This document shows, in pieces, positions 18,894-35,440 of a DNA stretch of 42,071 nucleotides; within the stretch, counting starts at the first letter, position 1, and each line of letters starts with the position of its first letter. The position numbers and the translations under genes are program-made. Below the pieces are notes generated by a model. It searched no databases, was not told the DNA's origin, and saw only the letters and a program-made list of their open reading frames with translations. Source of the stretch: a virus; the IMG/VR virus record IMGVR_UViG_3300008807_000162, positions 1 through 42,071 of that record. One strand, given 5' to 3'.

Positions 18894-18910
18894 GATTCGC
18901 TGACGCCTCG
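18894..18910 (+). repeat. Dispersed element copy a: GATTCGCTGACGCCTCG
   Basis: Intergenic between 18913..19242 and 18682..18873. Followed by hairpin CCTCG-gatta-CGAGG (18906-18920). Confidence 0.8.
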
Positions 18911-18912
18911 GA

Positions 18913-19242
18913 TTACGAGGTCTGCGCCTTCATAAGAGCGAGCAGCTTCGCGGGCAGTCTCTGGCCGAACTGCTTGGTGGCGTTCTCACTCTCGCCCACA
19001 GCCTCGAGCGCGGCCTGCGTGACCATGTCCATTTGCGCGGACGAGACGATGTGCGTGGCCGCCAGTGGCATCAGGCGCACGTCGCTCAGATCATCGCAGC
19101 GGAGCGGGATATATCCACTCTCGACAAGAAGCGCCTGCATCTCAGGAGCAAGCGGCTCACTGGACTTGTAGAGGAGTATCGCCTTCGCGCCCGGTGTCGG
19201 TGCTGTGATCGTCTGTTCGGTCATTTCGTCGTCCATTTCCAT
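18913..19242 (-). CDS. Hypothetical protein
   Basis: 109 aa. AAGGAG upstream. Abuts the previous stop codon. Confidence 0.65.
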   Translation of the reverse strand: MEMDDEMTEQTITAPTPGAKAILLYKSSEPLAPEMQALLVESGYIPLRCDDLSDVRLMPLAATHIVSSAQMDMVTQAALEAVGESENATKQFGQRLPAKLLALMKAQTS

Positions 19243-19632
19243 TCACTCCTTTATGTATTTCGTCGGTGCAAAGCGCCTCGTGCCCGTCCGCCAATCCCAG
19301 TACGAGCCCGGTGGAGGCTTGGGAAAGCTGCTGCGCTTGCGAATGCCGAGGTGCTTCGCCTCGCGTCGCTTCGACTTCGCTATGGCCTTCACGTCCTTGG
19401 CGGTCTTGCCGTTCTCGCCGCGATGACAGCAGTGCCCCAAAAGCTTGCCATCCTCGATGGTCAGCGGCTTAGATTTGTCGATCACCAGAGCCTCGGCCAC
19501 GACGTGGTCTATCTCCCACTTCTTGAAGGTCACGTTGAGGCTGCACCCTTCGCAGAGGATGCGGTTATCGCCGGTCGTGGCGCGCTTGATGATGTCAAAG
19601 CGCTGCTTTGGGGTGAACTCGCGGCGCTTCAC
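19243..19632 (-). CDS. HNH endonuclease
   Basis: 129 aa, GTGA overlap. CEGC...WEIDHVVAEAL...LLGHCCH...KTAKDVKAIAKSKR fits the HNH zinc-finger nuclease pattern. Confidence 0.75.
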   Translation of the reverse strand: MKRREFTPKQRFDIIKRATTGDNRILCEGCSLNVTFKKWEIDHVVAEALVIDKSKPLTIEDGKLLGHCCHRGENGKTAKDVKAIAKSKRREAKHLGIRKRSSFPKPPPGSYWDWRTGTRRFAPTKYIKE

Positions 19633-19865
19633 TTGGCGGCCTTCTGGAGCTTGCGTAGCTCGCGGATCAGCAAAGGCAACGTGTTCGCTAGGATCATCAC
19701 GTGACCCTCGTACCGATCAGTCACGATATGCAGCCAAGGCCCTTCCCCGTAGACCTCTGCAATGGGGCCGCTGCCGCCGATGCTGTCCGTATACTTGGAT
19801 CCGATATGGGCGTGCCCAGTCTTCGGATCACGCCACAGATAGGGCTTGCTGTCCCGACCCATCAC
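19629..19865 (-). CDS. Hypothetical protein
   Basis: 78 aa. Start-stop overlaps on both sides. Confidence 0.6.
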   Translation of the reverse strand: MMGRDSKPYLWRDPKTGHAHIGSKYTDSIGGSGPIAEVYGEGPWLHIVTDRYEGHVMILANTLPLLIRELRKLQKAAK

Positions 19866-20278
19866 CGCGCCTCGTCACTGAGCTTGATGGGGATGCCGCG
19901 CACCGTTGCCCAAGCAATCGTGTACTCGATAAGGCTGGTGCTGCGCGGGATGGACATGCGGGCCGATGACTCCCGAATTTCGACCAGCTCGCCCTCAAGG
20001 CCAATCACCACATCCGGCTGCCGCCCGGTAATCTTGGCGTGCCCTGAGATCAGCAGAACCTTCCATTCCTTGGCCGTGCGCTGGCAGCCCGCCCACTCGA
20101 TGCCGGATTTGGCGATGTCACCGCAAAGGGCATGGAAAATCCGGTTCTGGCCTAGGGTGCGCTTGGGCGCGGGCCGAGCGTCGCGCGCTTGGCTTTGCAG
20201 GCCTCGATCAGGCGAGCGTACTCGGCCGGGGCCGATGCCTCGATGCGCCGTATCCAGGGAAGATTGTGCCGCCACCAT
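19862..20278 (-). CDS. ninB: NinB/Orf-family recombination mediator; N-terminus unresolved (possibly frameshifted)
   Basis: KRTLGQNRIFHALCGDIAKSGIEWAGCQRTAKEWKVLL...SSARMSIPRSTSLIEYTIAWATVRGIPIKLSDEAR aligns with lambda NinB from RSLDQNRKLWA onward. The first ~38 codons after ATG 20278 are Arg/Gly/Pro-rich and overlap the better-looking ORF 20152..20352. Confidence 0.65.
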   Translation of the reverse strand: MVAAQSSLDTAHRGIGPGRVRSPDRGLQSQARDARPAPKRTLGQNRIFHALCGDIAKSGIEWAGCQRTAKEWKVLLISGHAKITGRQPDVVIGLEGELVEIRESSARMSIPRSTSLIEYTIAWATVRGIPIKLSDEAR

Positions 20279-20352
20279 TGATCCAGTTCCTTGTGATTGA
20301 GGGCGAGAGGGAGCGTGGCGATGGCCATGCTCACCAGCCCGACGTCATTCAC
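20152..20352 (-). CDS. 66-aa ORF, either a separate small gene or the true N-terminal part of the NinB-like protein
   Basis: GTGA overlap with recT. Higher GC3 than the overlapping frame. Ends ...YARLIEACKAKRATLGPRPSAP, where KRATLG duplicates the KRTLG of the other frame. Confidence 0.5.
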   Translation of the reverse strand: MNDVGLVSMAIATLPLALNHKELDQWWRHNLPWIRRIEASAPAEYARLIEACKAKRATLGPRPSAP

Positions 20353-21819: not shown

Positions 21820-21848
21820 CTATCTCTCCTGTCTCAATGGATGGGGGT

Positions 21849-21865
21849 GATTCGCTGACGCCTCA
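21849..21865 (+). repeat. Dispersed element copy b: GATTCGCTGACGCCTCA
   Basis: Intergenic between 21868..22281 and 21289..21819. Followed by hairpin GTCAC-gattgcg-GTGAC (21867-21883). Confidence 0.8.
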
Positions 21866-21867
21866 CG

Positions 21868-22281
21868 TCACGATTGCGGTGACTTGCTATCCCAAGGCAC
21901 TTCATGTTCGCCGGAGAGCAAGACGACGTAGCCGCAGATCAGCTCTGCCACTCGCGCTGCTTCAGCGGCGCTGTCGTATCCAGCATGAAAGGTATCGTCG
22001 CGGGCATAGACGGCGCACAGGTGCTTGACGGACTTGCGCGGCGGCGGAGGAAGGAGGCGGGGCACCGGGACATATGGCGTTCCATCTTCCTGCCACCAGT
22101 GCACCTCAATCTTCATTGGGTGTATGTCTTGAGGCGGAATCACCCAGCCCAGCATGCAGTTTTTGCGGAAGGCCGTTTCCGCGATCACAGCAACAACGCC
22201 TTCGGATGCCGTGGGCACGAGCGCGCGGCCCTTGTCATCGTGATCGTAGTGTCCGGCGTCGATATGTTCTCGGATATTCAT
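21868..22281 (-). CDS. Hypothetical protein
   Basis: 137-aa ORF with a normal residue composition. Confidence 0.65.
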   Translation of the reverse strand: MNIREHIDAGHYDHDDKGRALVPTASEGVVAVIAETAFRKNCMLGWVIPPQDIHPMKIEVHWWQEDGTPYVPVPRLLPPPPRKSVKHLCAVYARDDTFHAGYDSAAEAARVAELICGYVVLLSGEHEVPWDSKSPQS

Positions 22282-22299
22282 TGCAGAAGCCTCTGTGCG

Positions 22300-22461
22300 T
22301 TAGAGATCACGTGCGTTGAAAGAGCGAGGCGATAGCCAGTTCCAAACCCTCCACCAGAATCTCCTCCTAATAGGCACAGAAGGAGAGATAACCGGGCCGG
22401 GCTTGGGCCAGTTGAGGGAGGGGATCATGGCCTCGCGGAGCTGGCGCTGGGCGTCGGTCAT
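22300..22461 (-). CDS. Small hypothetical ORF (53 aa), doubtful
   Basis: ATGA overlap with the upstream gene. Coding bias decays in the 3-prime half, which contains element copy h. Confidence 0.35.
   Translation of the reverse strand: MTDAQRQLREAMIPSLNWPKPGPVISPSVPIRRRFWWRVWNWLSPRSFNARDL
22325..22336 (-). repeat. Dispersed element copy h (variant GCTATCGCCTCG on the minus strand)
   Basis: Plus strand reads CGAGGCGATAGCCAGTTCCAAACCCTCCAC, similar to the reverse complement of copy c. Confidence 0.6.
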
Positions 22462-22763
22462 GGCTTCCTCGGGGGAAGGGTGACGGTGCCGGTGAGAGGC
22501 ACGACAATCAGATGCTCGGCGCTCTTGGCGAACTCGATGGCATCCGACTCGAAGTCGTAAGTCTCGACGCCATCGCCACAGTAGCTGTCGACGACCATCC
22601 ACGCCGTGTAAGTGTGCTCTCTCGGCAGTGTGGCGAGATGGGCCTCGGCCGCATCAACGAGAGGCCAGAAGTCCGCGATCTTCAGGACATCCGCTCCAGA
22701 GGCGCGACACACCTTGGCGGCCCAGATCAGATGCTTCAGATTCTTGGCGTCAATCGTGCTCAT
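22458..22763 (-). CDS. Hypothetical protein
   Basis: 101 aa. GAGG upstream of ATG 22763. Confidence 0.65.
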   Translation of the reverse strand: MSTIDAKNLKHLIWAAKVCRASGADVLKIADFWPLVDAAEAHLATLPREHTYTAWMVVDSYCGDGVETYDFESDAIEFAKSAEHLIVVPLTGTVTLPPRKP

Positions 22764-22767
22764 CTCG

Positions 22768-23055
22768 TCACCTCGCTATTCCCAGAAGGGCCGAAGCGAT
22801 GGTCTTGGCGTCTTGTGTCAGATCGTCCGTCCAATCGTCGTATCGCGGGAAAGAAGAATCGAAGGCGGCGATGCGCTCGGCGGCTTCGAGCGCTTCCGTG
22901 CTGGCGGCTGGGATGCGCAACACCCAGAAGCCATCCGCACGCCGCCGCCAGTTACCGACATTGATGCTCTTGCCCGCTGCATCCTCTACCTCGACGAAGC
23001 GTCCAGCCTCGTGCTCGGGAGGTCCGTCAAAGACAATATCGATGTGCGCAGTCAT
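22768..23055 (-). CDS. Hypothetical protein
   Basis: 95 aa. GAGGAAGG upstream of ATG 23055. Confidence 0.65.
   Translation of the reverse strand: MTAHIDIVFDGPPEHEAGRFVEVEDAAGKSINVGNWRRRADGFWVLRIPAASTEALEAAERIAAFDSSFPRYDDWTDDLTQDAKTIASALLGIAR
22771..22783 (-). repeat. Junction 13-mer GGGAATAGCGAGG (copy 1)
   Basis: Minus-sense GGGAATAGCGAGGTGACGAGATG spans the end of 22768..23055 and supplies the SD of 22458..22763. Confidence 0.7.
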
Positions 23056-23354
23056 CGCTCGTTGCCTTCCTCGCTATTCCCTGGCTGGGAAGATGGTGGG
23101 GTGGCTTCGCCTCGCGCATCCGGCTCACGTTCCCATTCGTCATCATCGGGTCCGTAGTCGGGCGCGTCGTATCCATGCTCGTCTGGCCGATAGCAGTCGC
23201 CACCGCAGAAGCCGCACCAAGGCTTGCTCGTCTCGGCAACCTCTTCCTCGACGTCCGAGACGCATTCGGCGCAAATGAGGAGATCGCCAATGGCGTCGCA
23301 GCCGTCATCAGCATCCGCGAAGTCGCCGCAGCGAGAGCAATAGAACATGCTCAT
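23052..23354 (-). CDS. Hypothetical acidic Cys-rich (zinc-ribbon-like) protein
   Basis: Met64 of ORF 23052..23543, giving 100 aa. CSRCGDF...CAEC...CGFCGGDC. The upstream part of the long ORF is an Arg-rich shadow. Confidence 0.6.
   Translation of the reverse strand: MSMFYCSRCGDFADADDGCDAIGDLLICAECVSDVEEEVAETSKPWCGFCGGDCYRPDEHGYDAPDYGPDDDEWEREPDARGEATPPSSQPGNSEEGNER
23069..23081 (-). repeat. Junction 13-mer GGGAATAGCGAGG (copy 2)
   Basis: Minus-sense GGGAATAGCGAGGAAGGCAACGAGCGATG lies at the end of 23052..23354, upstream of ATG 23055, in a different reading frame from copy 1. Confidence 0.7.
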
Positions 23355-23673: not shown

Positions 23674-23705
23674 GTTTGGTGACGCGCGAAGCGCGGAGCG
23701 AACCC

Positions 23706-24239
23706 CTACTCATTCCTTCCCCCTTGTGATCTGGAAGCGCGGGAAGCGGTGAGGGCGGCTCTAATCCTTTCCGCCATCTCGTTTGCGTAGGAGTATCCAG
23801 CGCACGAGATCACCACAGTGGTTCCCTCTACGCGGACTGGTTCAAACGAACGATGGCCCGCGAACAACTCCCCCACTGCTTTGTCGGTGGATGCGGGGCG
23901 ATGCTTGGCAAGAACACGGGCGACCATGTCCGCTCGCCTGTTCGCGCCCGGCTCAAGAGATCCTTCGGTTCCCATCGCCTCACCGAGTTCGGTAAGAATG
24001 ATCTGGGCAAGCCGCGTGTCGTCTACGGAGTAATCGGCTGCTTTGTCGGTGGAGAGGAGGGGGCGACGGTTCCAGCTTGGATAGTCGGCCCGATCCAGCT
24101 CCAGCGGTCCTCCACGCTCTACGGTTGCGAGCCAGCAATCGCCTCCTGGGTGAAACGCTGAGCCTAAATCTGCATAGACAAGCATCTGCTTTCCACAGAA
24201 CGGGCACGGCAGCAGAGCGTCTTTCATCTCCCCGGTCAT
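23706..24239 (-). CDS. Protein with Lar-like (restriction alleviation family) N-terminal zinc ribbon
   Basis: Start MTGEMKD at 24239 (ATGA overlap). LLPCPFCGKQM...GGDCW resembles the Lar family N-terminus. C-terminal ~110 aa unknown. Confidence 0.5.
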   Translation of the reverse strand: MTGEMKDALLPCPFCGKQMLVYADLGSAFHPGGDCWLATVERGGPLELDRADYPSWNRRPLLSTDKAADYSVDDTRLAQIILTELGEAMGTEGSLEPGANRRADMVARVLAKHRPASTDKAVGELFAGHRSFEPVRVEGTTVVISCAGYSYANEMAERIRAALTASRASRSQGGRNE

Positions 24240-24427
24240 GTCTGGTCTCCCCAATAGCTTTCGTGTTCGCCATATTGGCCGGCACGAAGCTCAGCGACGG
24301 TCTTCACGACGGTCCCCGCTGTCCTGTACTCGTCGCAGTAGAACTGCCCCTGCCAGCAGCTCGCACGGAGACATGCCGAGCAAACGGTGACCTTGTGGTC
24401 AGCCTTCAACGCGCGTTCCCCGCTCAT
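24236..24427 (-). CDS. Hypothetical Cys-rich protein
   Basis: 63 aa. GGAGG upstream of ATG 24427. Confidence 0.55.
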   Translation of the reverse strand: MSGERALKADHKVTVCSACLRASCWQGQFYCDEYRTAGTVVKTVAELRAGQYGEHESYWGDQT

Positions 24428-24798
24428 GCCTGCCTCCGTGAGGGATTGGATTCGCTATCGCCTCGCGACGCGGACGGCTGTGTGGCCTTGGCGATGGCGG
24501 CGCGAACGCCTTTGCTGAACGTGGCGGCAGGAATCTGCTCGATCGTTCCGTCGAGGAAATTTACGGAGAGACTGTTGAAGTAGCCCCAGCCCTCCTTGCG
24601 CCGCACTCGCTGGCTGCCTGTGACGTAGCAGTCTCGACCGAGATAACTCACGACTGGGTAGACATTCATGCCGTGGCGCACGGCCATACAGGTCCAGGCG
24701 GGGCGCACGGGCGTGGCTGGGAATACATGCGCGAATGGCGCCGAATGCGCTACACGTGCCTCGCTATCCGAGGCGTCAGCACGCTCAATCTTCCCCAT
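24424..24798 (-). CDS. Hypothetical protein, bracketed by inverted element copies c and g
   Basis: 124-aa ORF. Its termini are encoded by the repeat elements. Confidence 0.5.
   Translation of the reverse strand: MGKIERADASDSEARVAHSAPFAHVFPATPVRPAWTCMAVRHGMNVYPVVSYLGRDCYVTGSQRVRRKEGWGYFNSLSVNFLDGTIEQIPAATFSKGVRAAIAKATQPSASRGDSESNPSRRQA
24449..24465 (+). repeat. Dispersed element copy c (variant GATTCGCTATCGCCTCG)
   Basis: Minus-sense GAGGCGATAGCGAATCCAATCCCTCACGGAGGCAGGCATG lies immediately upstream of ATG 24427. Confidence 0.7.
24769..24780 (-). repeat. Dispersed element copy g (GCTGACGCCTCG on the minus strand)
   Basis: Plus strand reads CGAGGCGTCAGC. Overlaps hairpin GCCTCG-ctatc-CGAGGC (24758-24774). 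Lies 18 nt inside ORF 24424..24798. Confidence 0.8.
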
Positions 24799-25236: not shown

Positions 25237-25830
25237 TCAGCCTCCAGCCTTGGTGGCTTCGCGAAGACGCTTGGCCGCCTGCAAGATGATGATCTTGGCG
25301 TTAGCGGCCCCCGCAGCGGCCCCCGCAGCGTCCCCCGCAGCGGCCCACGCAGCGGCCCCCGCAGCGGCCCACGCAGCGGCCCCCGCAGCGGCGTCAATCT
25401 TCCCGTTGGCGAAGTCGCGCGCCGCCTGGATAGCCTTGGCGGGGCGATCATCCTTCGGCCGCACCTTGTAGAAGATCGGCAACACCTTCTCGGCCATGTC
25501 GGCTGCGGCGAGGCGCATGGACTTCTCGTCCAGCAAGCCGACGATCTTGATCAGGCGCGCTTGGGCGAATGCCGTCTTGTTGCCGTCCTGCGATTCGTCG
25601 CCCTTGCCTTCGGCTTCGCAGAGATAGCCAGTGATGGGCACGCGAGGCAGCCACTCGACGATGCCGACAGCCTTCACAAGGTGATAGCCGCTTAAGCATG
25701 CCTCGACGTGATCGACCTTCGGCATCCACTTGCCGGGACGCGATCCCTTGGGCGCGAACCATCGGCCCGACCCGCCGTGGATGGGCTCGAAATCAGTTGA
25801 GACTATCTTGTAGAGCTTCGCGGTCTGCAT
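25237..25830 (-). CDS. Hypothetical protein with Ala/Trp/Gly low-complexity repeat (first gene of the leftward operon)
   Basis: Met57 of ORF 25237..25998, giving 197 aa. N-terminal domain MQTAKLYKIVSTDFEPIHGG...CLSGYHLV. C-terminal AAAGAAAWAAAGAAAWAAAGDAAGAAAGAA. Confidence 0.65.
   Translation of the reverse strand: MQTAKLYKIVSTDFEPIHGGSGRWFAPKGSRPGKWMPKVDHVEACLSGYHLVKAVGIVEWLPRVPITGYLCEAEGKGDESQDGNKTAFAQARLIKIVGLLDEKSMRLAAADMAEKVLPIFYKVRPKDDRPAKAIQAARDFANGKIDAAAGAAAWAAAGAAAWAAAGDAAGAAAGAANAKIIILQAAKRLREATKAGG
25304..25393. repeat. Tandem 12-bp repeat, about 7.5 copies (GCGGCCCCCGCA / GCGGCCCACGCA / GCGTCCCCCGCA)
   Basis: Read directly from 25304. In-frame within CDS 25237..25830, encoding (AAGA/AAWA)n. 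Confidence 0.9.
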
Positions 25831-25939: not shown

Positions 25940-26575
25940 ATGAAACGGGTGTTTCTTGCTGCGGCGGTGGCTTTGGCCGTTGCCGCCTGCGGTGCCAAGG
26001 TTGAGACTAATGTGACGGCTTTTCACAACCTCTCGTCCGCACCGCGTGGACAGACGTTTGTGATGATCCCCCTCAAGAGTCAGGAGGGAAGCCTTGAGTT
26101 CCAAACCTACGCCGGCATGGTGGCGAGCCGGCTGGCACAGAAGGGGTTGGTGCCCACGCAGCAGGCCACGGGCGCGGACTACGCAGTGTTCATTGCCTAC
26201 GCGATTGACGAGGGTAGAACGAGCGTGTCATCGGCCCCAGTTTTTGGCCAGACAGGTGGTGGGACGACAACCACAACGTCAGGCTACGTTGGGCGTACGC
26301 CGGTATATGGCTCCTCTTATACGGCGCCTACGTACGGGATTACCGGATATGTGCCTGTCGAAGATACAGTTTATGGCCGCGCAGTGAAGATCGTCATTCT
26401 TGACGCGAAGCGTACTGTCGCAGAGGGCAAGAACGTCGTGGTTTATGAGGCGACGGCAGCCAGCACCGGATCCAGCGGCAACCTCAACATGGTGATGGCA
26501 CCCATTCTAGATGCAGTTTTTGAGGATTGGCCTGGAAAAAGCGGCTCAACGCAGCGTCGCGTAAAGCCAATGTAG
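25940..26575 (+). CDS. Lipoprotein (DUF4136-like, tentative), candidate lysogenic-conversion or exclusion gene
   Basis: MKRVFLAAAVALAVAACGA has a lipobox (VAAC). GGGAGG upstream of ATG 25940. 211 aa. Located inside the immunity region, convergent with the repressor gene. Confidence 0.7.
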   Translation: MKRVFLAAAVALAVAACGAKVETNVTAFHNLSSAPRGQTFVMIPLKSQEGSLEFQTYAGMVASRLAQKGLVPTQQATGADYAVFIAYAIDEGRTSVSSAPVFGQTGGGTTTTTSGYVGRTPVYGSSYTAPTYGITGYVPVEDTVYGRAVKIVILDAKRTVAEGKNVVVYEATAASTGSSGNLNMVMAPILDAVFEDWPGKSGSTQRRVKPM

Positions 26576-26588: not shown

Positions 26589-26981
26589 TTACCGACCCAA
26601 GCGCTTAAGGTAGCGCTGCAAGACGAAAACGGCCTTTTCCTCTTCCGGACTCATCTTCTCGGGGTCGTAAATTTCCTTGGTCAGCACGTCGTAGAGCCGA
26701 TGGGGGGCCGCGGGAGCGGCGGCCTGTGACTCGGCAAATCCGTGGCCTGAGAAATTGACCGTATCTGGAGGGGACTTGCCGGTCTGCAGAAACTGCGCGG
26801 TCGTTCCTAGTGCGGTGGCAATCTCGATGATTGCGCGAGGCGACGTGACAATCCCATTTTCCACATTGGCCACGCTCTGCTGTGAAAGCTTTCGGCCGAG
26901 TCGAGTTACTGCTGCGGCCAACTCTTCTTGGGAGAGGCTTCTTGCCTCACGCAGCTCTCTAATACGCTGAGCTATCGACAT
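26589..26981 (-). CDS. XRE-family (CI-like) repressor without a peptidase S24 domain
   Basis: Start MSIAQRIRELREARSLSQEELAAAV...SQQSVANVENG (HTH_XRE) at 26981, chosen because the longer form would cover the operators. 130 aa. The C-terminal half is too short for an S24 domain and unlike one. Confidence 0.8.
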   Translation of the reverse strand: MSIAQRIRELREARSLSQEELAAAVTRLGRKLSQQSVANVENGIVTSPRAIIEIATALGTTAQFLQTGKSPPDTVNFSGHGFAESQAAAPAAPHRLYDVLTKEIYDPEKMSPEEEKAVFVLQRYLKRLGR

Positions 26982-27048: not shown

Positions 27049-27056
27049 CAGCACTC

Positions 27057-27284: not shown

Positions 27285-27670
27285 GCGCCCATTCAATTCT
27301 TCTCGTCGCTTGCCGGTGGCTGCGCCAGAAGTTCGAGCTTCTGGACCGCTTCCTTGAGCATTGGGAGCGAGGCCAACGGAAACCGAAGGCTAGCCGCAAC
27401 TTGGCGTCCGTTGATGGATCGTCCGTCTGCGGTGCCGGTATGCATGGTGTATTCGAGCGTCACGTTGCACATGCCGAGATACAGGCCCTGTGTCGTAACG
27501 ACATCGAAGTATACGAGCGGGGCATTGCCGGCGCGCAGCAGGGTTATTTCCCTCTCCAGATCAACTACAGGGGGCAAAGTTTCGTCGGCCATAGGTACCT
27601 CGATGGTTGTGCAAACCAGCAACATTATCGGGCGCTTCCGCCATCTGCCAACCGCGGAGCTACCGCCTGA
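27281..27670 (+). CDS. Alternative 129-aa ORF (mutually exclusive with 27293..27592 on the minus strand)
   Basis: ATGA overlap with cro-like, TGATG overlap with the next gene, GAGG upstream. However, the product is Cys/His/Arg-rich and GC3 is only about 63% by my count. Confidence 0.35.
   Translation: MSAHSILLVACRWLRQKFELLDRFLEHWERGQRKPKASRNLASVDGSSVCGAGMHGVFERHVAHAEIQALCRNDIEVYERGIAGAQQGYFPLQINYRGQSFVGHRYLDGCANQQHYRALPPSANRGATA
27293..27592 (-). CDS. Antisense-oriented 99-aa hypothetical protein with its own promoter and SD
   Basis: Start MADETLPP at 27592 with GAGGT 5 nt upstream. Ordinary residue mix (VVDLEREITLLRAGNAPLVYFDVVTTQGLYLGM). Promoter-like TTGGCA-18-TAATGT upstream. GC3 about 67% by my count. 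Confidence 0.45.
   Translation of the reverse strand: MADETLPPVVDLEREITLLRAGNAPLVYFDVVTTQGLYLGMCNVTLEYTMHTGTADGRSINGRQVAASLRFPLASLPMLKEAVQKLELLAQPPASDEKN
27622..27651 (-). promoter_or_regulatory. Candidate sigma70 promoter for the minus-strand ORF 27293..27592
   Basis: Minus sense: TTGGCA (27651-27646), 18-nt spacer, TAATGT (27627-27622). Confidence 0.4.
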
Positions 27671-27849
27671 TGCGCCCCGCAGACGCCACGCCTGACGAGA
27701 AAGAGCCCGTGAAGCCGTGGCGTCCTCTCAGCGATGAGCATCGCGCGAAGATTTCCGCCGCCAGAAAGCGTCAAACCCGCCCACAGCGCATTGGTGGCGT
27801 CGTCGCGTCTTGGGTCCTCGACGAAGAATTTGACGAGTTGGAGGGCTGA
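27670..27849 (+). CDS. Small protein with a NUMOD3-like motif
   Basis: 59 aa from MRPADATPDE. LSDEHRAKISAARKRQ resembles the NUMOD3 DNA-binding motif of homing endonucleases. Confidence 0.45.
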   Translation: MRPADATPDEKEPVKPWRPLSDEHRAKISAARKRQTRPQRIGGVVASWVLDEEFDELEG

Positions 27850-28464
27850 ATGCGCCCGCACGACGCCACAGGCTTGGTCGAGTTCTACGCGGAGAAGCGC
27901 CGGAAGTACGACGGGCTCGCCTACAAGGCACCCGTAATCGTGGCCCCCGAGCCGATCCGCATAAAGCTGGTGGATGACGCCGAGCGAACGAAGCTCATCG
28001 GCCAGATCGAGCGCCTGAAGGCCGATCTTTCGGCCGCCGTGGCGGAGAACCTGAAGCTGCAGGAGATGGTGGCCGGGTTCAGGCCCCACAATGTGCCGAC
28101 CTCGCGAGCGCCGATAGCCATCCTCGCGGTTCAGACCGCTTTCTGCGAGACCATGATTTCCATCGGGCGCGCGGTCGATGACGGTTCCTCGTGGACACTT
28201 GAGCATTTGAAGGCCCCCCGGCGCGCCGCCGATCTGGCACGCCCCCGGCATGTCTGCATGTGGCTGTGCCGGAAGATTTGCACGACGGCCTCGCTGCCTC
28301 AGATCGGGCGTGCGTTCGGCGGTCGCGACCACACGACGGCACAGAACGGCATCCGCCGCGCGCCCGTGCACATGGCGGGCGATGCGGACCTGCACATGGC
28401 CGCGCTCACGATCCTCAAGCGGTTCGACTGCGTTGCCGATTTGGAATCGGGAGGGACGCCATGA
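27850..28464 (+). CDS. Replication-associated protein with DnaA domain IV (Bac_DnaA_C) HTH
   Basis: 204 aa. RPRHVCMWLCRKICTTASLPQIGRAFGGRDHTTAQNGIRR closely matches the DnaA C-terminal DNA-binding signature. Central coiled coil. No AAA+ motifs. Confidence 0.8.
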   Translation: MRPHDATGLVEFYAEKRRKYDGLAYKAPVIVAPEPIRIKLVDDAERTKLIGQIERLKADLSAAVAENLKLQEMVAGFRPHNVPTSRAPIAILAVQTAFCETMISIGRAVDDGSSWTLEHLKAPRRAADLARPRHVCMWLCRKICTTASLPQIGRAFGGRDHTTAQNGIRRAPVHMAGDADLHMAALTILKRFDCVADLESGGTP

Positions 28465-29327
28465 CAGGCGTGGGACTTCGACGCCCCTCCCGCGTGACCG
28501 GCGGGAGCCAAGGACGCGATCTCCATGAGTCCGAAAATGCTGCATTCAGGGAAAGAATACTCGCGAAGGTCATCCCGGAGCCAAACTCTGGCTGTTGGCT
28601 TTGGCTGGGAACCACCAGTGGGCACGGATATGCCCAGCTCAGCGTAAATGGCGAAATGACGCTGGCCTACAGGCTGACGCATCAGGCGTTCTTGGGCGCA
28701 ATCCCAGAAGGGATGCTTCTCAACCGCAAATGCGGTGTTCGCCTGTGCCTGAACCCTGACCACATGCGCCTCGTCACCGAGGCTGAGCATTTGGCGGAGG
28801 CCAAGAAGAAAAGGCGCAGCCGCCCCAAGCCGCCACATCGTGATGAACTGGACTGGAACGCCCTGGCGGAGATGGTGCGAGAGCGTCTTCTTGCGCACTC
28901 CATGCCCGAGCCCAATAGTGGATGTTGGCTGTGGACTGGCTACGCTGACAAGGACGGGTATGGCTACACCAGGATAGCCACGCATAACTTCCGAGCGCAC
29001 CGCGCCTCGTACATCGTGTTTCGCGGCGATATCCCGGAGGGCATGCGCGCTTGTCACAAGTGTGACAACGCCGGTTGCATCAACCCCGATCATATTTTCC
29101 TCGGAACAGATGCAGACAACATTGCGGACAAAATCCGCAAAGGACGGCATCGCGGCGGGGGGAACGCCGCCGGAAACGCGAAGCTCAATGCATCGGAAGT
29201 TCTGAGAATTCGGACGGAGTCAGGCACGCATCGCGACATTGGCGATAAGTACGGCGTCAAGGAGTCCACCGTTAGCCTGATAAAGCGCGGCAAGACTTGG
29301 CGACACCTGTTGGGGGCAGCCCAATGA
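28461..29327 (+). CDS. Tandem HNH_3-type homing endonuclease (degenerate N-terminal copy, intact C-terminal copy plus HTH)
   Basis: Met68 of ORF 28260..29327, giving 288 aa. Copy 1: EPNSGCWLWLG...RKCGVRLCLNPDHMRLVT. Copy 2: EPNSGCWLWTG...CHKCDNAGCINPDHIFLGTDADN, then LNASEVLRIR...GVKESTVSLIKRGKTWRHL. Paralogue of 3035..3532. Confidence 0.8.
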   Translation: MTGVGLRRPSRVTGGSQGRDLHESENAAFRERILAKVIPEPNSGCWLWLGTTSGHGYAQLSVNGEMTLAYRLTHQAFLGAIPEGMLLNRKCGVRLCLNPDHMRLVTEAEHLAEAKKKRRSRPKPPHRDELDWNALAEMVRERLLAHSMPEPNSGCWLWTGYADKDGYGYTRIATHNFRAHRASYIVFRGDIPEGMRACHKCDNAGCINPDHIFLGTDADNIADKIRKGRHRGGGNAAGNAKLNASEVLRIRTESGTHRDIGDKYGVKESTVSLIKRGKTWRHLLGAAQ

Positions 29328-29695
29328 CCAGTTCCTCCACCGCGCATCCAGGCATCGTCTCGTTGCCCGGCTCTCGATCCGTTTTCGCTGCGCTCCCCGA
29401 CCCCCTCGACACGCGCAGCCCCACCGGCGAGCTGCTGGGGACAATCGACGGCGATTGGTCGGTGGAGAAGCGGCTGCACCGGCAGTTTCACCGAGCGCGA
29501 ATCAGCCACCCGCGAGTTCCAGAGCTATTTGCCTATTCGATCATTGGCGGCGCGATTGAGGCTTTGATAGCCGCGCAGCCCGAGTGGGAGGACCTGACGG
29601 CCATTCCATGGCCAACGCGCACCTTCAACAACGCAGCCATGGATGCGCTTGTCGTCGAGATGACGATGAAGCGCCTGTTGAGGGGGCGCCAGTGA
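29324..29695 (+). CDS. Hypothetical protein, possible T5orf172/GIY-YIG-like remnant
   Basis: ATGA overlap, 123 aa. DGDWSVEKRLHRQFHRARISHPRVPELF resembles the E..LH..F...R....E.F end of T5orf172 domains. The N-terminal GIY-YIG part was not recognisable. Confidence 0.4.
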   Translation: MTSSSTAHPGIVSLPGSRSVFAALPDPLDTRSPTGELLGTIDGDWSVEKRLHRQFHRARISHPRVPELFAYSIIGGAIEALIAAQPEWEDLTAIPWPTRTFNNAAMDALVVEMTMKRLLRGRQ

Positions 29696-30327
29696 CCGAC
29701 GACCGATTGCAGGCGTTTGTTGACCGCATCGAGAACGTCGAGGGTGAGCAGCGCGACTTGGGTAAGGACAAGCGCGAAATATACGGCGAGGTGAAGGAGG
29801 CCGGTTACAACACCAAGGCCTTGCGCAAGATCATCGCCGCGCGCCGCCAGAAAGATCGGGAAGAGATCGAGGAGGCGATGGACGGATATCGCGTCGCCCT
29901 CGGTATGGCGGGCGCGGCTGTCCGCGGCGGTATGAGCCTGGACGATGCGCAGGTCGAGCATGGGTTTAGCCGATCTGCCATCCATCGAGAATCCCAGAGG
30001 CAAGAAACGTTGTCAGTGGGACGGACCATGGTTGCCGATGACCTTGGCGAATGGCTCCCCACGCATGACCCCAATACCGGCGAACTGCCTCGCGAGATGT
30101 GTGGCGACGATCTTGGCGACTACGCGTTGATCAAGCCTCGCGTCCGTGCCGAGCGCCCCAAGAGGGTCGAGGAGGATTTCGGAGAGAAGGTTCGCCAGAT
30201 GATTGCGGATGCCGGCCTCAAGCCCCGGACGGAACGCGACAAGTTCATCTCCGACGATGAAGCCATGCAGGCCTTGGAGGAATCCATTTCCCTCCGCGCC
30301 AATAGAAACGAAGGGGTGAGGGCGTGA
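29692..30327 (+). CDS. GapR-like (DUF2312) nucleoid-associated DNA-binding domain fused to an acidic C-terminal extension
   Basis: GTGA overlap, 211 aa. LQAFVDRIENVEGEQRDLGKDKREIYGEVKEAGYNTKALRKIIAARRQKDREEIEEAMDGYRVALGM aligns with GapR/DUF2312. Confidence 0.8.
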   Translation: MTDDRLQAFVDRIENVEGEQRDLGKDKREIYGEVKEAGYNTKALRKIIAARRQKDREEIEEAMDGYRVALGMAGAAVRGGMSLDDAQVEHGFSRSAIHRESQRQETLSVGRTMVADDLGEWLPTHDPNTGELPREMCGDDLGDYALIKPRVRAERPKRVEEDFGEKVRQMIADAGLKPRTERDKFISDDEAMQALEESISLRANRNEGVRA

Positions 30328-30679: not shown

Positions 30680-31096
30680 ATGGCCCGGCAACGTCCCGAG
30701 CAAGCCTTGCAGATCCAGGTGGCGCGGTTCCTGTCGGTCGCGTTGAAGCCGCCTGTCGTCTGGTCCGCGATCGGTCACGGCGGCGGCGGCCGGGTGCGCG
30801 GCGCGCAGCTCAAGGCCATGGGCCTTCGCAAGGGAATGCCCGACTTCATCATCATCGCGCCCGGGTGCGACGGCTACATGGGCGAACTGACGCCGCTTGC
30901 GATAGGGCTGGAACTCAAATCGCCCGCGGGCCGCCAATCGGCCGAACAGAGGGCACTCCAGGCCAAATGGGAGGAGTGCGGCGGCAAATTCGCCGTCGTT
31001 CGGTCTCTTGATGAGGTGGCGAGCTTTCTCAGCGGCACAGGCGTCCCCTTGCATGCCTCTTTGTCCTCCCCTCCGGTGAGGGAGAAGGTGGCGTGA
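30680..31096 (+). CDS. VRR-NUC domain nuclease
   Basis: 138 aa. EQALQIQVARFL...GGGRVRGAQLKAMGLRKGMPDFIII...IGLELKSPAGRQSAEQRALQAKWEECGGKFAVVRSLDEV fits the VRR-NUC PD-(D/E)xK pattern. Confidence 0.75.
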   Translation: MARQRPEQALQIQVARFLSVALKPPVVWSAIGHGGGGRVRGAQLKAMGLRKGMPDFIIIAPGCDGYMGELTPLAIGLELKSPAGRQSAEQRALQAKWEECGGKFAVVRSLDEVASFLSGTGVPLHASLSSPPVREKVA

Positions 31097-31374
31097 GTAG
31101 TGATTCGCTGACGCCTCGCGACGATAGGCCTGTGCCTCGCAAGTCGACGGCATATCAGCGTCGCCACAAGCACGGAAAGGGCACCCCGCTCTACAAGGAC
31201 GTGGAGAACGGACCACGCCGGATCTGCGTCACGCTCGACAGCGACGGATTCCGACGCATGGCGTGGCTCGCCAAGAAGCGGGGCGTGCCAATGAACACCG
31301 TCCTTCAGGATGCGGTGTACGCCTATTGCCTGCCGATTGCGGCAGATGCCGATGCGGAGGCAGGGCACTCATGA
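31093..31374 (+). CDS. Hypothetical protein, possible ribbon-helix-helix DNA binder; start uncertain (GTG 31093 or GTG 31132)
   Basis: 93 aa. RRICVTLDSDGFRRMAWLAKKRGVPMNTVLQDAV is RHH-like. Element copy d occupies codons 4-9. Confidence 0.55.
   Translation: MSSDSLTPRDDRPVPRKSTAYQRRHKHGKGTPLYKDVENGPRRICVTLDSDGFRRMAWLAKKRGVPMNTVLQDAVYAYCLPIAADADAEAGHS
31102..31118 (+). repeat. Dispersed element copy d: GATTCGCTGACGCCTCG
   Basis: Identical 17-mer to copy a. Lies 9 nt downstream of GTG 31093. Confidence 0.8.
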
Positions 31375-31880: not shown

Positions 31881-32174
31881 ATGGCCCAGCCGCAGCGCCG
31901 CGCCGAGTTCTTTGTCCGCCCCGATGGTGTATGCATCCCCAAGGCGCCGCCCCTGAAGGAGCGCGAGCGGTACGAGTATTTCAATGCCAGCGACAAGGTT
32001 TGCGCGCTTTGTGGCGTTCAGGTCGCACGGCTAGGGGTGAATGTCTGCCCGTTCATGAAAGAGCGCCATGGGCAGATCGACCACATCTTGGCTCGCTCTC
32101 GCGGCGGCCAGAACGATAATTCAAACCTGCGTCTGCTCTGCGTGTCCTGCAACGCGAGCAAGGGGGCGAAGTAG
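31881..32174 (+). CDS. HNH endonuclease
   Basis: 97 aa. CALCGV...GQIDHILARSRGGQNDNSNLRLLCVSCNASKG. Confidence 0.85.
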   Translation: MAQPQRRAEFFVRPDGVCIPKAPPLKERERYEYFNASDKVCALCGVQVARLGVNVCPFMKERHGQIDHILARSRGGQNDNSNLRLLCVSCNASKGAK

Positions 32175-33570: not shown

Positions 33571-33795
33571 TTACCGCGGCAACTCCCGCAGCAGGGCCTT
33601 CAGCAGGTCTATCCGCTCGTGGATATCGGAGCGCAGTTCGGCGGCGAGTTCCGGCGGTGGCGGCGGGTTCCCGGCATCCCAATACCGGATCATCCGGCCC
33701 GATTTCCCGCGCTTACGGGCCATCTCGGTCTGCCAGCGCGGCCCGTACATCGCCTCTCCGATGCGGCGAAGGAGGGCGGGGGGTAGGTCAGTCAT
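33571..33795 (-). CDS. Small HTH-like protein, last gene of the minus-strand cassette (candidate autoregulator)
   Basis: Met51 of ORF 33571..33945, giving 74 aa. WQTEMARKRGKSGRMIRYWDAGNPPPP resembles Cro/antitoxin-type HTH proteins. Confidence 0.55.
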   Translation of the reverse strand: MTDLPPALLRRIGEAMYGPRWQTEMARKRGKSGRMIRYWDAGNPPPPPELAAELRSDIHERIDLLKALLRELPR

Positions 33796-33955
33796 CCCGA
33801 GTAAGGTCCGATGGATCAGGGGCGTTCTCTTCGTCGTGGTGGGCGCACCAATCCGGGTCGTTCGGATCCCGCCATTCGCGAGACTTGCGGCGCAGTTCCT
33901 CGGCCCGGCGGGCCGCGTCGCCCTTGGGGACGTCACCGCGAGCAATCGACGTCAT
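33788..33955 (-). CDS. Small hypothetical protein (55 aa), middle gene of the cassette
   Basis: Not in the ORF track. ATG 33955 lies 1 nt after the upstream TAA. 8-nt overlap with the next gene. Translates as MTSIARGDVPKGDAARRAEELRRKSREWRDPNDPDWCAHHDEENAPDPSDLTRDD. Confidence 0.5.
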   Translation of the reverse strand: MTSIARGDVPKGDAARRAEELRRKSREWRDPNDPDWCAHHDEENAPDPSDLTRDD

Positions 33956-33956
33956 G

Positions 33957-34424
33957 TTATCCCTCCATCGTGCCGGTTTGGATCAGGCTGGCCAGAATAG
34001 CGACAGACTGGGGCGACGCCATGGTCTCGAATGCCTCGGACGAGAGGACGAACGTCACGTCGTCGCGGGCGTGCAGGCTGCGAATGGCCGGAGATGTGAC
34101 CGTCAATTCGCCGGCGCCTTCGCTGATCTGCACGCCGATCCGCTTCGCCGGGTCGACGCCCATCGAACCGGCGTTGAAGGCGGAATGGTTGGAGACGCGC
34201 AGGTCCTCACCCGCCGGCCCCACCGCGTAGAGCGACCACTTGGACCCGCCCTGCGAACGATACCCGAGGGCGGCGACGAGCGCCTCCATGACCTCGCGCA
34301 CAACCTGCTTCTCTCGCTTATCCGTGTCCGAAGCATGGAGATCGGCAGAGGGGGCGTCTCCTACCGGCCATTCGACCGAAGCGTAACCGTAGGTGTCGAC
34401 CAGCATTTTTGGCTCCATGTTCAT
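33957..34424 (-). CDS. Hypothetical 155-aa protein, first gene of the cassette (start at 34424, 34418 or 34406)
   Basis: Clean ORF with an ordinary composition. No family recognised. A promoter and operator lie immediately upstream. Confidence 0.65.
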   Translation of the reverse strand: MNMEPKMLVDTYGYASVEWPVGDAPSADLHASDTDKREKQVVREVMEALVAALGYRSQGGSKWSLYAVGPAGEDLRVSNHSAFNAGSMGVDPAKRIGVQISEGAGELTVTSPAIRSLHARDDVTFVLSSEAFETMASPQSVAILASLIQTGTMEG

Positions 34425-34459
34425 TTCCTAAATATAGGAAATGTTCACAAGAAGATCAA
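34422..34459 (-). promoter_or_regulatory. Near-consensus sigma70 promoter overlapped by a perfect 9-4-9 palindromic operator
   Basis: Minus sense: TTGATC (34459-34454), 17-nt spacer, TATATT (34436-34431). Palindrome CATTTCCTA-aata-TAGGAAATG at 34422-34443. The predicted start site is at about ATG 34424. Confidence 0.65.
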
Positions 34460-34501
34460 CAGCAGTCGGCGCAACTTTCTTGCGAATTTCAGGAGGCTCC
34501 C

Positions 34502-34849
34502 ATGACCACCCCCGCTTCCCCTAGGGGTGAGGATAGCGTGCTGACGCCTCGCTCTGTCGATGCCCGTTCATTCAAAATCGACGGCACGCCATGGCCTCGG
34601 CCGGGCGATCTGATGCTGTTCACGAATGCTGGCGGCTACGATCACGAGCAGAAGGAAGCCGCCGGGCTGTTCTCGGAATGGACGCTCTACCGCGTCAAGG
34701 ACATCCGCATCGGCAGCTATGACCACCGGATCGAGTTCAAGCACCTGCCGGGCCGCTGGTTCAACGGCGTGATGTTCCAACTGATTGTGGAGCTGCCTGA
34801 TCCACGAGGCGTCAGCGAACACACCCCCACTGAGGGAGACAGGACATGA
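34502..34849 (+). CDS. Hypothetical protein, bracketed by inverted element copies e and i
   Basis: Met32 of ORF 34409..34849. AGGAGG upstream. 115 aa. Confidence 0.65.
   Translation: MTTPASPRGEDSVLTPRSVDARSFKIDGTPWPRPGDLMLFTNAGGYDHEQKEAAGLFSEWTLYRVKDIRIGSYDHRIEFKHLPGRWFNGVMFQLIVELPDPRGVSEHTPTEGDRT
34540..34551 (+). repeat. Dispersed element copy e: GCTGACGCCTCG
   Basis: Context GGGGTGAGGATAGCGTGCTGACGCCTCG, 38 nt inside ORF 34502..34849. Confidence 0.8.
34805..34816 (-). repeat. Dispersed element copy i (GCTGACGCCTCG on the minus strand)
   Basis: Plus strand reads CGAGGCGTCAGCGAACACACCCCCACTGAGGGAGACAGGACATG, so the long form sits upstream of ATG 34846. Confidence 0.8.
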
Positions 34850-35082
34850 GCGGAGAGAACGAAGCCCTGAAGCCCTGTCGCTCATACATGCGTGAGCGGT
34901 CCTTCTGCCGGGATGGCTTTATGCAGTGGTCCAATACGTGTTGGGGAGCGCCAAACGGCAACATACCGATGTGCTGCAAGGAGGACGATTGCGCGCATCA
35001 CTTTGCGCAAACTGGCGGCAAGCCACCTGATCATTTGATCGTCGCAGCCCTTCCCACCGACACGAAAGGCGGCGGGACATGA
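34846..35082 (+). CDS. Hypothetical Cys-rich protein
   Basis: 78 aa, ATGA overlap. Confidence 0.6.
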   Translation: MSGENEALKPCRSYMRERSFCRDGFMQWSNTCWGAPNGNIPMCCKEDDCAHHFAQTGGKPPDHLIVAALPTDTKGGGT

Positions 35083-35270
35083 GCCTCACCTGTGAAGAGC
35101 AGATGGCGATCATGCGTCACGTCGAGGAGGACGTGAAACTGGGTCGCCGCTGCCAATCCTGCCTTCGCTGGAGGGATCGGCCGACGCTGGACGTCGATTG
35201 CGATGCCTGCCGAGCGGAAGACGCCGAATGGCTTTCACCACTCCCCGATATGCGAGGCGACCTGACATGA
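35079..35270 (+). CDS. Hypothetical Cys-rich protein
   Basis: 63 aa, ATGA overlap. CQSC...CDAC. Confidence 0.6.
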   Translation: MSLTCEEQMAIMRHVEEDVKLGRRCQSCLRWRDRPTLDVDCDACRAEDAEWLSPLPDMRGDLT

Positions 35271-35440
35271 CCGACGACGACGCCGTTCCATGGACCTCAA
35301 TGGAGGAGGCGTGGCTGACGCCTCAGAACACGCGCCAGCAAGACAGGCTCGCCGCCATGGACAGGGGTTACCGAATCGCATTCGAGCGCGACATTCTCCC
35401 CCATATCCCGCAGCCCCAATGCACGTGGACATTCTCATGA
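35267..35440 (+). CDS. Small hypothetical protein (57 aa)
   Basis: Met24 of ORF 35198..35440. ATGA overlaps on both sides. Confidence 0.5.
   Translation: MTDDDAVPWTSMEEAWLTPQNTRQQDRLAAMDRGYRIAFERDILPHIPQPQCTWTFS
35314..35325 (+). repeat. Dispersed element copy f: GCTGACGCCTCA
   Basis: Context GGAGGAGGCGTGGCTGACGCCTCA inside ORF 35267..35440. Confidence 0.7.

Follow-up and report, generated by a model that had tools for sequence, protein, structure and literature searches.

A short core sequence recurring in two orientations at the gene borders of a temperate-looking phage: probable recombination joints of cassettes exchangeable in frame

What is the role of a short sequence that recurs in two orientations at the gene boundaries of a single phage genome? 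The question is raised by the virus record IMGVR_UViG_3300008807_000162, a metagenomic contig of 42,071 bp that was analysed as a whole (hereafter the window), in which an initial annotation had recognised a dispersed 11-mer, GCTGACGCCTC, and its variants. Based on comparison with related phage and prophage sequences, designated below by L numbers, the copies are best read as recombination joints resembling the promoter-early stem-loops (PeSLs) of T4-type phages, and this reading, by which the joints bound cassettes exchangeable in frame, is probably correct.

A total of seven copies of the exact 11-mer were counted in the window, at 18899, 21854, 31107, 34540 and 35314 on the + strand and at 24770 and 34806 on the - strand, against a mean of 0.11 in dinucleotide-preserving shuffles, none of which reached seven. 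Outside low-complexity (GCC-type) runs, it is the most repeated 11-mer of the window. This recount and the shuffles confirmed the positions and strands given by the initial annotation, and its GCTATCGCCTC variants (24454, +; 22326, -), its longer form GATTCGCT..CGCCTC, its three abutting hairpins and its distances to ATG codons were all correct, a third GCTATCGCCTC variant at 40166 (+) having been missed. The three copies of the form GCTWWCGCCTC compare with 0.09 expected, and GCTTCGCCTC, which is one base shorter than GCTGACGCCTC, occurs four times (12737, 15996, 19353 and 23104) against 0.26 expected. The statement that the structural module holds no full copy stands for the exact 11-mer but not for the variants (12737, 15996 and 40166). 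When two mismatches were allowed the total count was at the chance level (27 against 28); what marks a member of the family is therefore one of these particular variants rather than general resemblance to the core. A profile hidden Markov model (HMM) built from 25 copies detected no additional strong match in the window, and no k-mer repeats longer than 14-16 nt were found in the window.

At least eight sequences of related phages or prophages carry the family. They comprise the prophage L107 in a Reyranella metagenome-assembled genome (MAG), the IMG/VR contigs L005 (part of L129) and L007/L008 and, from Logan and ENA assemblies, L036/L037, L039, L127, L128 and L129. Alignment on the core of 66 non-redundant copies from the window and its relatives indicated that the 11-mer is the core of a module of about 45-50 bp, with the order G-run, GCT-N1-2-CGCCTC, N11-13 and CNCGTG, in which the core takes the form GCT-(GA/AT/TA/T)-CGCCTC, usually with G next. 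The G-run lies 4-32 nt to one side of the core in 40 of the 66 copies (16.8 ± 3.3 in shuffles) and the CNCGTG box 9-24 nt past the core in 24 (3.0 ± 1.6 in shuffles). Both boxes accompany copies of either orientation with respect to transcription. Immediately 5' of the core, the bases vary by flavour (GATTC, GCGC or GCGT).

With respect to genes, the copies fall into positional classes, which rest on gene calls for nine loci and comprise 38 copies in the L and about 30-31 in the R orientation. L copies read GCT..CGCCTC on the sense strand and stand at the 5' end of small genes, while R copies are their reverse complement (sense strand GAGGCG..AGC) and stand at the 3' end of genes, ten of them exactly 3 nt past the upstream stop codon and others within the last codons of an open reading frame (ORF) that runs up to the next ATG. 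The distance to the next start is 26-49 nt for 17 of 30 R copies. Two kinds of L copy were recognised. Ten copies form the leader class, in which a conserved leader (GCTCTNTCAAYGC..AAGGAGC..GCAATG) comes next and the ATG is reached after 43-45 nt, and the genes that they precede are apparently different as judged by the first codons; the module of core and leader stands ahead of apparently different genes in L036, L039, L127, L128, L129 and L008. In the second kind the core lies within the ORF, 2-47 nt after the start codon. Since L stands at the 5' end and R, inverted, at the 3' end, an L copy and the next R copy enclose a cassette whose two cores are inverted to each other. The order of L and R along the operons shows 35 alternating steps against 19 steps of the same orientation.

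The reading frames of the copies had been thought to differ, but three of the four sense copies share one frame: the ORFs that start at 31093, 34502 and 35267 all read xxG CTG ACG CCT (L-T-P). The same phase is used by 9 of 11 within-ORF L 11-mers across the family, in addition to 31107 and 34540 with the start codons of the initial annotation, and two within-ORF 10-mers use the equivalent frame GCT TCG CCT. A conserved peptide (LTPR..R.V) as the cause was rejected, because the pattern also occurs in antisense copies and synonymous positions are invariant; it is opposed in addition by a preference for GTG far beyond the codon usage for Val, and by a nonsense variant in the contig L130 that drops an R-encoded tail (see below). 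The fixed phase is best explained by compatibility of phase among the joints, many of which fall inside coding sequence, rather than by a functional peptide.

Whether the core marks points of exchange was examined by comparison of its flanks. L107, an 8-kb stretch of a 50-kb contig from a Reyranella massiliensis MAG (CALROF020000015.1), carries six cores and is collinear with 19.3-28.3 kb of the window. The two are extremely mosaic, sharing islands of 24-87 nt with 90-100% identity at gene borders between unrelated or diverged genes, and four of these islands are L or R elements. At L128:3206, the G-run flank of window copy 18899, including the downstream gene start, has been combined with the opposite flank of window copy 21854, and the parental arrangements behind this joint share only GATTCGCTGACGCCTC. 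Among 25 pairs of copies with at least one similar 45-nt flank, 12 were sharply one-sided, two were two-sided and 11 intermediate, against 38 sharp and 118 two-sided cases for random 11-mers shared between the same loci (odds ratio 18.6, p=8e-6). Identity typically stays at about 100% to the last base of the core and becomes random 0-9 nt later. The initial annotation had proposed that related phages be aligned to see whether mosaic breakpoints coincide with the elements, and the ends of blastn blocks (>=85% identity) are indeed in excess there, 12 of 122 falling within 8 nt of a core, a zone that makes up about 1.5% of positions (p=4e-7). At the variable dinucleotide of the core, all eight left-similar pairs agreed and all four right-similar pairs differed (p=0.002); the dinucleotide thus stays with the G-run side, which places the exchange in the stretch from core position 5 to a few bases beyond CGCCTC. 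These comparisons of aligned genomes show that the two sides of the core reassort independently between phages, with the core as the pivot of reassortment.

Replacement of the sequence between L and R was observed at several loci. Three L/R brackets are present in the window, 22336/21854 around gene 21868-22281, 24780/24454 around ORF 24424-24798, and 34540/34806 within gene 34502-34849, and the bracketed proteins are unrelated to one another. The third bracket gives the clearest view of a joint within coding sequence. Gene 34502-34849 (+; g65, 115 aa) opens with an L-type start module (34502-34551, core 34540-34550; ATG..MTTPASPRGEDSVLTPR), which is identical to L128:17626-17675 up to the core and unrelated afterwards. 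The encoded protein shares residues 1-17 (MTTPASPRGEDSVLTPR) at 100% identity, ending at the L core, with the 176-aa product of L128:17626-18156, and shares with it also the last 13 residues (G[V/R]SEHTPTEGDRT, from the R core), while the middle of the L128 protein (146 residues) is unrelated to the exchangeable body of the window gene (34552-34805, residues 18-102, which match PF27001 and phrog_8472 weakly). This middle part of the L128 protein is in turn homologous to L039:3755-4171, whose N-terminal module before LTPR differs. The R-type copy that closes the window gene (34806-34849; core 34806-34816 on the - strand; sense GAGGCGTCAGCGAACACACCCCCAC..) encodes the tail ..GVSEHTPTEGDRT and holds the Shine-Dalgarno (SD) sequence and the ATG (34846) of the next gene. 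The contig L130 (ENA, 2,259 nt) matches 34440-34900 of the window (461 nt aligned) except for G>T at 34790 (L130:660), by which codon 97 of gene 34502-34849 is changed from GAG to TAG, 16 nt upstream of R, so that the element is untranslated and a 19-residue tail is lost.

Whole genes are replaced in the same manner. For the RNA-ligase cassette of L036 (6471..7146) and L127 (5885..5201), the inner flanks are conserved and the outer flanks different. Upstream of the recombination genes there is a slot of varying content: gene 21868-22281 in the window, the ligase in L036, another gene in L039, and the ligase and a homologue of window gene 21868-22281 in tandem in L127, each of these ending with an R copy. 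In L107 the slot contains a 30%-identical homologue. In L107, different genes lie between the L and R copies that correspond to 24780/24454. The sequence MSDSTLTPR belongs to an upstream ORF of 13 codons in L107, and in L127 a 92-aa ORF begins with it. The alignments altogether show that whole genes, or in-frame gene bodies, are replaced between L and R, and that L-R pairs delimit the replaceable units.

Within this framework, exchange would take place between co-infecting phages or prophages by annealing at short homology, the likely agents being the recombination genes of the phage itself (RecT or ERF, with NinB, HNH and Gam-like genes of the left operon). Recombinants would then be kept by selection, since reading phase and stop/start spacing are the same at every joint, and exchange of L by L or of R by R would preserve stops, starts and frame. 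The inverted arrangement of L and R would avoid loss of cassettes by recombination between direct repeats, and the modules probably supply translation signals as well (SD sequence, start codon, restart region). Shuffling of cassettes at short-homology linkers was already among the roles proposed by the initial annotation, and the comparison with relatives supports it in that homology begins or ends at the core and ORF bodies are replaced between L and R; the wording "RecT-mediated" is too specific, because L127, L128 and L129 carry elements but encode ERF and not RecT. With RecT in the window, L036 and L039, and with ERF in L127-L129, the elements are not tied to RecT.

Several observations weigh against this reading. 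Many joints have no more than 6-16 nt in common, little for annealing of the RecT or ERF type, and this leaves room for a core-specific enzyme. A pure linker model requires neither the inverted L and R copies nor the complete R-loop-L palindromes of the relatives. Some other conserved boundary islands between the window and L107 lack the core, which is therefore not the only joint. The core variants differ by orientation, GA being found in 21 of 38 L copies but in 8 of 31 R copies (hand count), which are mostly shorter or AT variants, and this difference suggests a strand-specific constraint (RNA or coding) beyond recombination, and with it a possible additional role in expression. Finally, the evidence is all comparative, with no recombination event observed directly.

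The shortness of the joints leads to the alternative that the core is a crossover or cleavage site for a dedicated enzyme (a recombinase, a nicking HNH or another nuclease) in temperate phages, with ORFs or ORF bodies between inverted sites swapped in frame as in recombinase-mediated cassette exchange, and with the intergenic R-loop-L palindromes formed, like integron attC sites, where two cassettes abut. We consider this unlikely. In its favour, the exchange point lies within the invariant CGCCTC or a few nt beyond in every informative case, joints recur at shared sequence as short as 6-16 nt, palindromes of inverse core and core with variable length stand between ORFs in L036, L039, L127 and L129, and a module of 101 nt is 100% identical between L036 and L039 with both flanks unrelated. 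A small protein (27670-27849, +; 59 aa) with a weak NUMOD3 motif (E=0.004, below the Pfam cut-off) and the HNH gene 19243-19632 are also found mostly in element-positive loci, the only hints, both weak, that profiling of gene presence and absence gave of a candidate binding protein; homologues of the former are present in five element-positive and none of 23 element-negative loci, a sample biased by locus collection, some loci having been fetched via a neighbouring gene. On the other hand, neither a second recombinase nor an integron-type integrase was found in the window, which has only the phage-type integrase (16151-17272), the core lacks the dyad symmetry of tyrosine-recombinase core sites, the spacing of G-run and core and the length of the core (10 or 11 nt) vary, and edges of homology just as sharp result from homologous recombination within a shared patch. 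Integron cassettes are promoterless single ORFs with attC sites that are imperfect palindromes of inverse core and core (core GTTRRRY). The present family is similar with respect to palindromes of variable length between ORFs and to array identity that ends at the core, but is different in that an IntI-type integrase, attI and Pc are absent, the core is unrelated to GTTRRRY and the boxes RYYYAAC...GTTRRRY of attC are not found, the half-sites of the window flank an ORF instead of forming a hairpin behind it, and joints may lie within an ORF.

The complete palindromes bear also on an RNA-level role in expression as the primary function, in which R (GAGGCG..) and L (..CGCCUC) are the arms of intercistronic stems, local or long-range, acting as sites of RNase III cleavage or other processing, as weak terminators or in start and restart control through SD-like and anti-SD-like pairing, with recombination as a by-product. 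This possibility, to which the RNA processing or translation elements named by the initial annotation belong, is the likeliest of the alternatives, although we hold it to be improbable. Complete R-loop-L palindromes were identified at L036:11759-11815 (27-bp stem, 2-4 nt loop), L036:6385-6480 (the same as L039:8291-8386), L127:5885-5965 and L129:1495-1555, and the complete hairpins between genes of the relatives (-24 to -60 kcal/mol) are followed by the conserved leader with AAGGAG and GCAATG. An expression role agrees with the fixed spacing of the elements to stop and start codons, the tendency of L and R to alternate along operons, the SD-like and anti-SD-like tetramers contained in the invariant GAGGCG/CGCCUC, the pairing of the hexamer with an upstream GAGGCG around the start codon at 35314 and at L008:795, and the difference in core variants between L and R. 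The window itself, however, contains half elements and no complete hairpin, and local folding of each copy gives no consistent partner. The L-R partners 22336/21854 and 24780/24454 have mismatched dinucleotides or flavours without compensatory changes, and the antisense folds of R-L hairpins are as stable as the sense folds. The elements lack a U-tract and a terminator or sigma-70 promoter consensus, and alignment of the leaders reveals no conserved -10/-35 but only the SD sequence and GCAATG; scans of 17.5-36.5 kb for sigma-70 promoters and intrinsic terminators gave the same counts as shuffles and no site at any element. No Rfam family fits the element, and a search of the whole window against Rfam (E<=1) gave a single weak match to an unrelated small RNA. 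A boxA/nut site was likewise rejected: GCTCTTTCAAC at 22316-22326 is similar to boxA (GCTCTTTA-like), but the positions of its T-run vary freely in the ten leader-class copies.

The same asymmetric core of 10-11 bp, with the same flanking boxes in both directions, could instead fit recognition as duplex DNA, and the phage encodes several DNA-binding proteins, so that stoperator-like binding sites for a regulatory or nucleoid-type protein (the phage DnaA-domain-IV-like, GapR-like or ribbon-helix-helix (RHH)-like protein, or a host factor) may be considered. This is the least probable of the explanations weighed here. The intergenic region between the cI-like and cro-like genes (26873-27057) has no copy, even with two mismatches or by HMM, the copies stand in both orientations to transcription, a one-base deletion within the core is common, and exact phasing with stop codons, start codons and reading frame is unexpected for an operator. 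The stoperator-like repressor sites suggested by the initial annotation are thus not supported. Stoperators of Cluster A mycobacteriophages are immunity-repressor operators with one orientation to transcription, and the start-associated sequences (SAS) and extended SAS (ESAS) of Cluster K are sense-oriented and lie a few bp upstream of start codons. The family resembles both as an asymmetric motif on the 13-bp scale that occurs many times per genome near gene borders or starts; it differs from stoperators by its absence from the immunity operator region and its two orientations, and from SAS by a core that precedes starts by 26-49 or 43-45 nt, or follows them by 2-47 nt, again in both orientations. 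A link to GANTC sites, CcrM and GcrA, which had been drawn from the GATTC in four window copies, is not supported, as GATTC is a minority in the family; GATTC is only one flavour beside GCGC and GCGT, and GANTC is therefore not a family feature, nor are GANTC sites enriched in the window (90 sites). As a separate observation, these 90 sites compare with about 194 in dinucleotide-preserving shuffles, an about two-fold depletion if both were counted in the same way, which, if real, would fit a host with CcrM-type methylation.

The palindromes may finally be viewed as a selfish mini-element similar to miniature inverted-repeat transposable elements (MITEs) or REPINs, namely a mobile R-loop-L unit with 11-bp terminal inverted repeats, of which the half copies of the window are decayed remains. 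This we regard as quite improbable. The arms at L036:11759-11815 meet almost end to end, decayed copies exist, and the 101-nt module of L036 and L039 counts for this view as well. For the flavour of the element represented by the 17-mer GATTCGCTGACGCCTCG, however, a scan of one genome per species (185,579 species, no complete Reyranella chromosome being read) gave 86 single matches over all phyla, which is near chance, and no genome with several matches, several cores being found in the L107 prophage alone. Such single and scattered matches speak against a generic host repeat, the condition under which the initial annotation would have withdrawn its proposal, as far as one flavour can tell. 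In addition, no transposase or RAYT gene was seen, the loops of different R-loop-L modules are unrelated, and the half copies keep precise coding and spacing relations that are conserved between the window and L107. A mobile element with a homologous interior was rejected, the bracketed ORFs being unrelated. The ultra-small mobile elements of mycobacteriophages (MPME), repetitive extragenic palindromes (REP)/REPINs and MITEs have short inverted repeats or form intergenic palindromic doublets. The likeness of the present family consists in inverted repeats on the 11-bp scale around 0.3-0.5 kb with one small ORF, but because the ORFs are mutually unrelated, these are not copies of one element of the MPME or MITE type, and, unlike REP/REPINs, the family gives no sign of a population in a host chromosome in this one-flavour scan.

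Other searches for the family were negative. The relatives with RecT or gp157, L031-L035, L038, L040 and L012-L030, have neither the element nor a comparable repeat family. Metagenomes gave no match to a 27-mer of the start module and three unrelated, chance-like single matches to a 19-mer, and viral contigs gave no match to the 19-mer.

As for recombination joints, the published analogue is provided by the PeSLs of T4-type phages (Arbiol et al. 2010, PMC2839356; Comeau et al. 2014, PMC4122927), which, like the present elements, are dispersed short motifs bordering small accessory ORFs in plastic early regions, with exchange of unrelated sequences at the motifs and a GGGG...CCCC stem motif, and which, like them, are read as linker sequences of the modular theory. 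PeSLs consist of a strong sigma-70-type promoter and a terminator stem-loop within about 100 bp, are in direct orientation in lytic myoviruses, and give rise to excised mini-circles (PMC2839356). Motif-flanked accessory ORFs with homology breaking at the motifs are found here also, but a strong sigma-70-like early promoter and the direct orientation that lets mini-circles be excised are not; for the terminator stem, complete hairpins occur in the relatives, with none in the window and no T-run or terminator consensus. On the compared sequences, the element is thus different from PeSLs by its shorter core (10-11 bp), its lack of promoter and terminator consensus, its inverted pairing around cassettes, its joints in frame, many of them within coding sequence at a fixed reading phase, and its occurrence in temperate phages of an uncharacterised alphaproteobacterial group. 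Relaxed recombination by Rad52-like recombinases has been described for temperate phages (De Paepe et al. 2014, PMC3945230). Short conserved gene-border sequences at which homology starts or ends, with phage single-strand annealing proteins suspected, are a feature shared with the linkers of lambdoid phages. Boundary or linker sequences of this kind are reportedly known from the modular theory of Susskind and Botstein and from comparisons of HK97, HK022 and HK620. As far as is known, each lambdoid junction has a boundary sequence of its own; here, in contrast, one and the same core is present at least 10-14 times within one genome, pointing either way and read in a shared phase. The family lacks the defining properties of stoperators, SAS, REP/MITE/MPME elements, integron attC sites, nut sites and GANTC sites.

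The phage of the window looks temperate by gene content. Its leftward early operon (-) extends from about 26.5 kb to the integrase gene and includes Gam/gp157-like, RecT, NinB and HNH genes, while the rightward early operon (+), from the cro-like gene on, includes genes for DnaA-domain-IV-like (27850-28464), GapR-like (29692-30327), VRR-NUC (30680-31096), methyltransferase and DUF1376-type primosomal proteins and several HNH genes, and is followed by the terminase and structural genes. The immunity region between the operons comprises a cI-like gene (26589-26873) and a cro-like gene (27057-27284). No close cultured phage was found, GenBank phages giving no nucleotide match and TerL (large terminase subunit) being at most 47% identical (Pelagibacter podophages); the host of the element-bearing phages is likely Reyranella or a related alphaproteobacterium. 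A scan of the window detected no tRNA or tmRNA.

Within the leftward operon, the R copy at 18880-18925 (-; core 18899-18909; sense GAGGCGTCAGC) lies 3 nt past the stop of gene 18913-19236 and 26 nt before ATG 18873, abutting a hairpin (CCTCG-GATTA-CGAGG). The R copy at 21836-21884 (-; core 21854-21864) lies 3 nt past the stop of 21868-22281 and 35 nt before the Gam/gp157-like ATG 21819, and an R copy stands at the equivalent position upstream of gp157, behind different upstream genes, in L036 and L039. The cassette gene 21868-22281 (-; 137 aa, no family match), between L 22336 and R 21854, is preceded by an L copy of the leader class (22282-22352, -; core 22326-22336, GCTATCGCCTC), of which the 45-nt leader with its SD sequence leads to ATG 22281. 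An R-type 10-mer variant (23095-23120, -; 23104-23113), sense GAGGCGAAGC then CACCCCACC, occupies the last codons of gene 23052-23354. A decayed L copy, recognised through the relatives, is found at about 23685-23725 (-; sense ATGAGTAGGGGTTCGCTCCGCGCTTCGCG), and the orthologous site L107:4878 is intact (GATTCGCTGACGCCTC). The R copy of the AT variant (24421-24478, -; core 24454-24464), through which ORF 24424-24798 reads, lies 27 nt before ATG 24427, and a 53-nt island at this copy is 98% identical to L107:5650-5702, the downstream gene being replaced. The cassette ORF 24424-24798 (-), between L 24780 and R 24454, encodes 124 aa if 24798 is its start, and its L copy (24752-24798, -; core 24770-24780) lies 18 nt after that ATG, followed by a hairpin (CCTCG-GATAG-CGAGG) and CACGTG.

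On the + strand, the L copy at 31039-31134 (core 31107-31117) lies 14 nt after GTG 31093. An R-like remnant, AGGCGTC (31039-31047), and a hairpin of C-rich and G-rich arms lie upstream, so that the region looks like a decayed complete R-loop-L module, and the N-terminal ..DSLTPR....VP.. of ORF 31093 recurs at L107:4878 and L008:868. A second R-like remnant revealed by the relatives, GAGGCGAC (35254-35261), belongs to the L copy at 35254-35335 (core 35314-35324), where the stem GAGGCGU/ACGCCUC encloses the GTG. The 10-mer variant at 15996-16030 (15996-16005), between the last late gene and the integrase gene, is followed by GGGGTGA..CATGTG and has a similar copy at L128:590. Two further sequences are possible members: GCTATCGCCTC at 40166-40176 (within 40156-40176), 10 nt after the ATG of structural gene 40156-40479, scored only 7 bits by HMM, and GCTTCGCCTC at 12737-12746 (within 12725-12746), 12 nt after ATG 12725 of an ORF with a signal-peptide-like N-terminus, is uncertain.

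Other repeats were noted beside the family. A second exact 11-mer, ACAGCGGCGAC, has four + strand copies in the structural part (64-74, 4874-4884, 14606-14616 and 42036-42046), but with one mismatch allowed its count (6 against 2.2 expected) is not significant. A boundary repeat, GGGAATAGCGAGG (-), lies at 22760-22783 and 23069-23102, just upstream of ATG 22763 and ATG 23055, both copies being 100% conserved in L107, and the related GGATAGCGAGG comes after the L core at 24770. In the minus-strand gene 25237-25830, 5-6 tandem 12-bp units of the CGCTGCGGGGGCCG type (25303-25390) encode an Ala/Gly/Trp-rich repeat (AAAGAAAWAAAG...) near the C-terminus of the 197-aa protein.

A total of four HNH-type nuclease genes were identified in 42 kb, at 3035-3532 (-), 28656-29327 (+), 31881-32174 (+) and 19243-19632 (-), one of which lies on the opposite strand within the structural module, as free-standing homing endonucleases typically do. 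Flanked by the leftward operon and the repressor-like gene, 25940-26575 (+) encodes a 211-aa protein with a lipoprotein-type signal peptide (MKRVFLAAAVALAVAAC...), which may be a lysogenic-conversion or moron gene. Three small opposite-strand genes (33571-34424, -) within the rightward early operon, with a sigma-70-like pair TTGATC-17-TATATT just upstream (34431-34459), look like an inserted, independently transcribed moron directly before the L copy at 34540. In or beside the early region of relatives, insertion elements were found at L039:12456-13859, L039:17771-18673 and L034:4015-4992, comprising an IS605-type TnpB/Cas12f-like gene in L039 and IS1595 transposases in L039 and L034.

The elements bear on the old question of whether phage mosaicism arises through conserved linkers or through random illegitimate recombination followed by selection, for which this group of phages offers a compact and testable case. 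By the common phase at inverted cores, the interior of a protein would be replaceable while its first 17 and last 13 residues stay. The cores provide precise sites for mutation, for anchoring the polymerase chain reaction (PCR) detection of recombinants, and for tests of binding or cleavage. If the exchange should prove to be site-specific, these temperate phages would carry a dedicated natural exchange system. As recombination joints bounding in-frame cassettes, the elements may represent a natural standard joint that could possibly be reused for engineering phage accessory genes.

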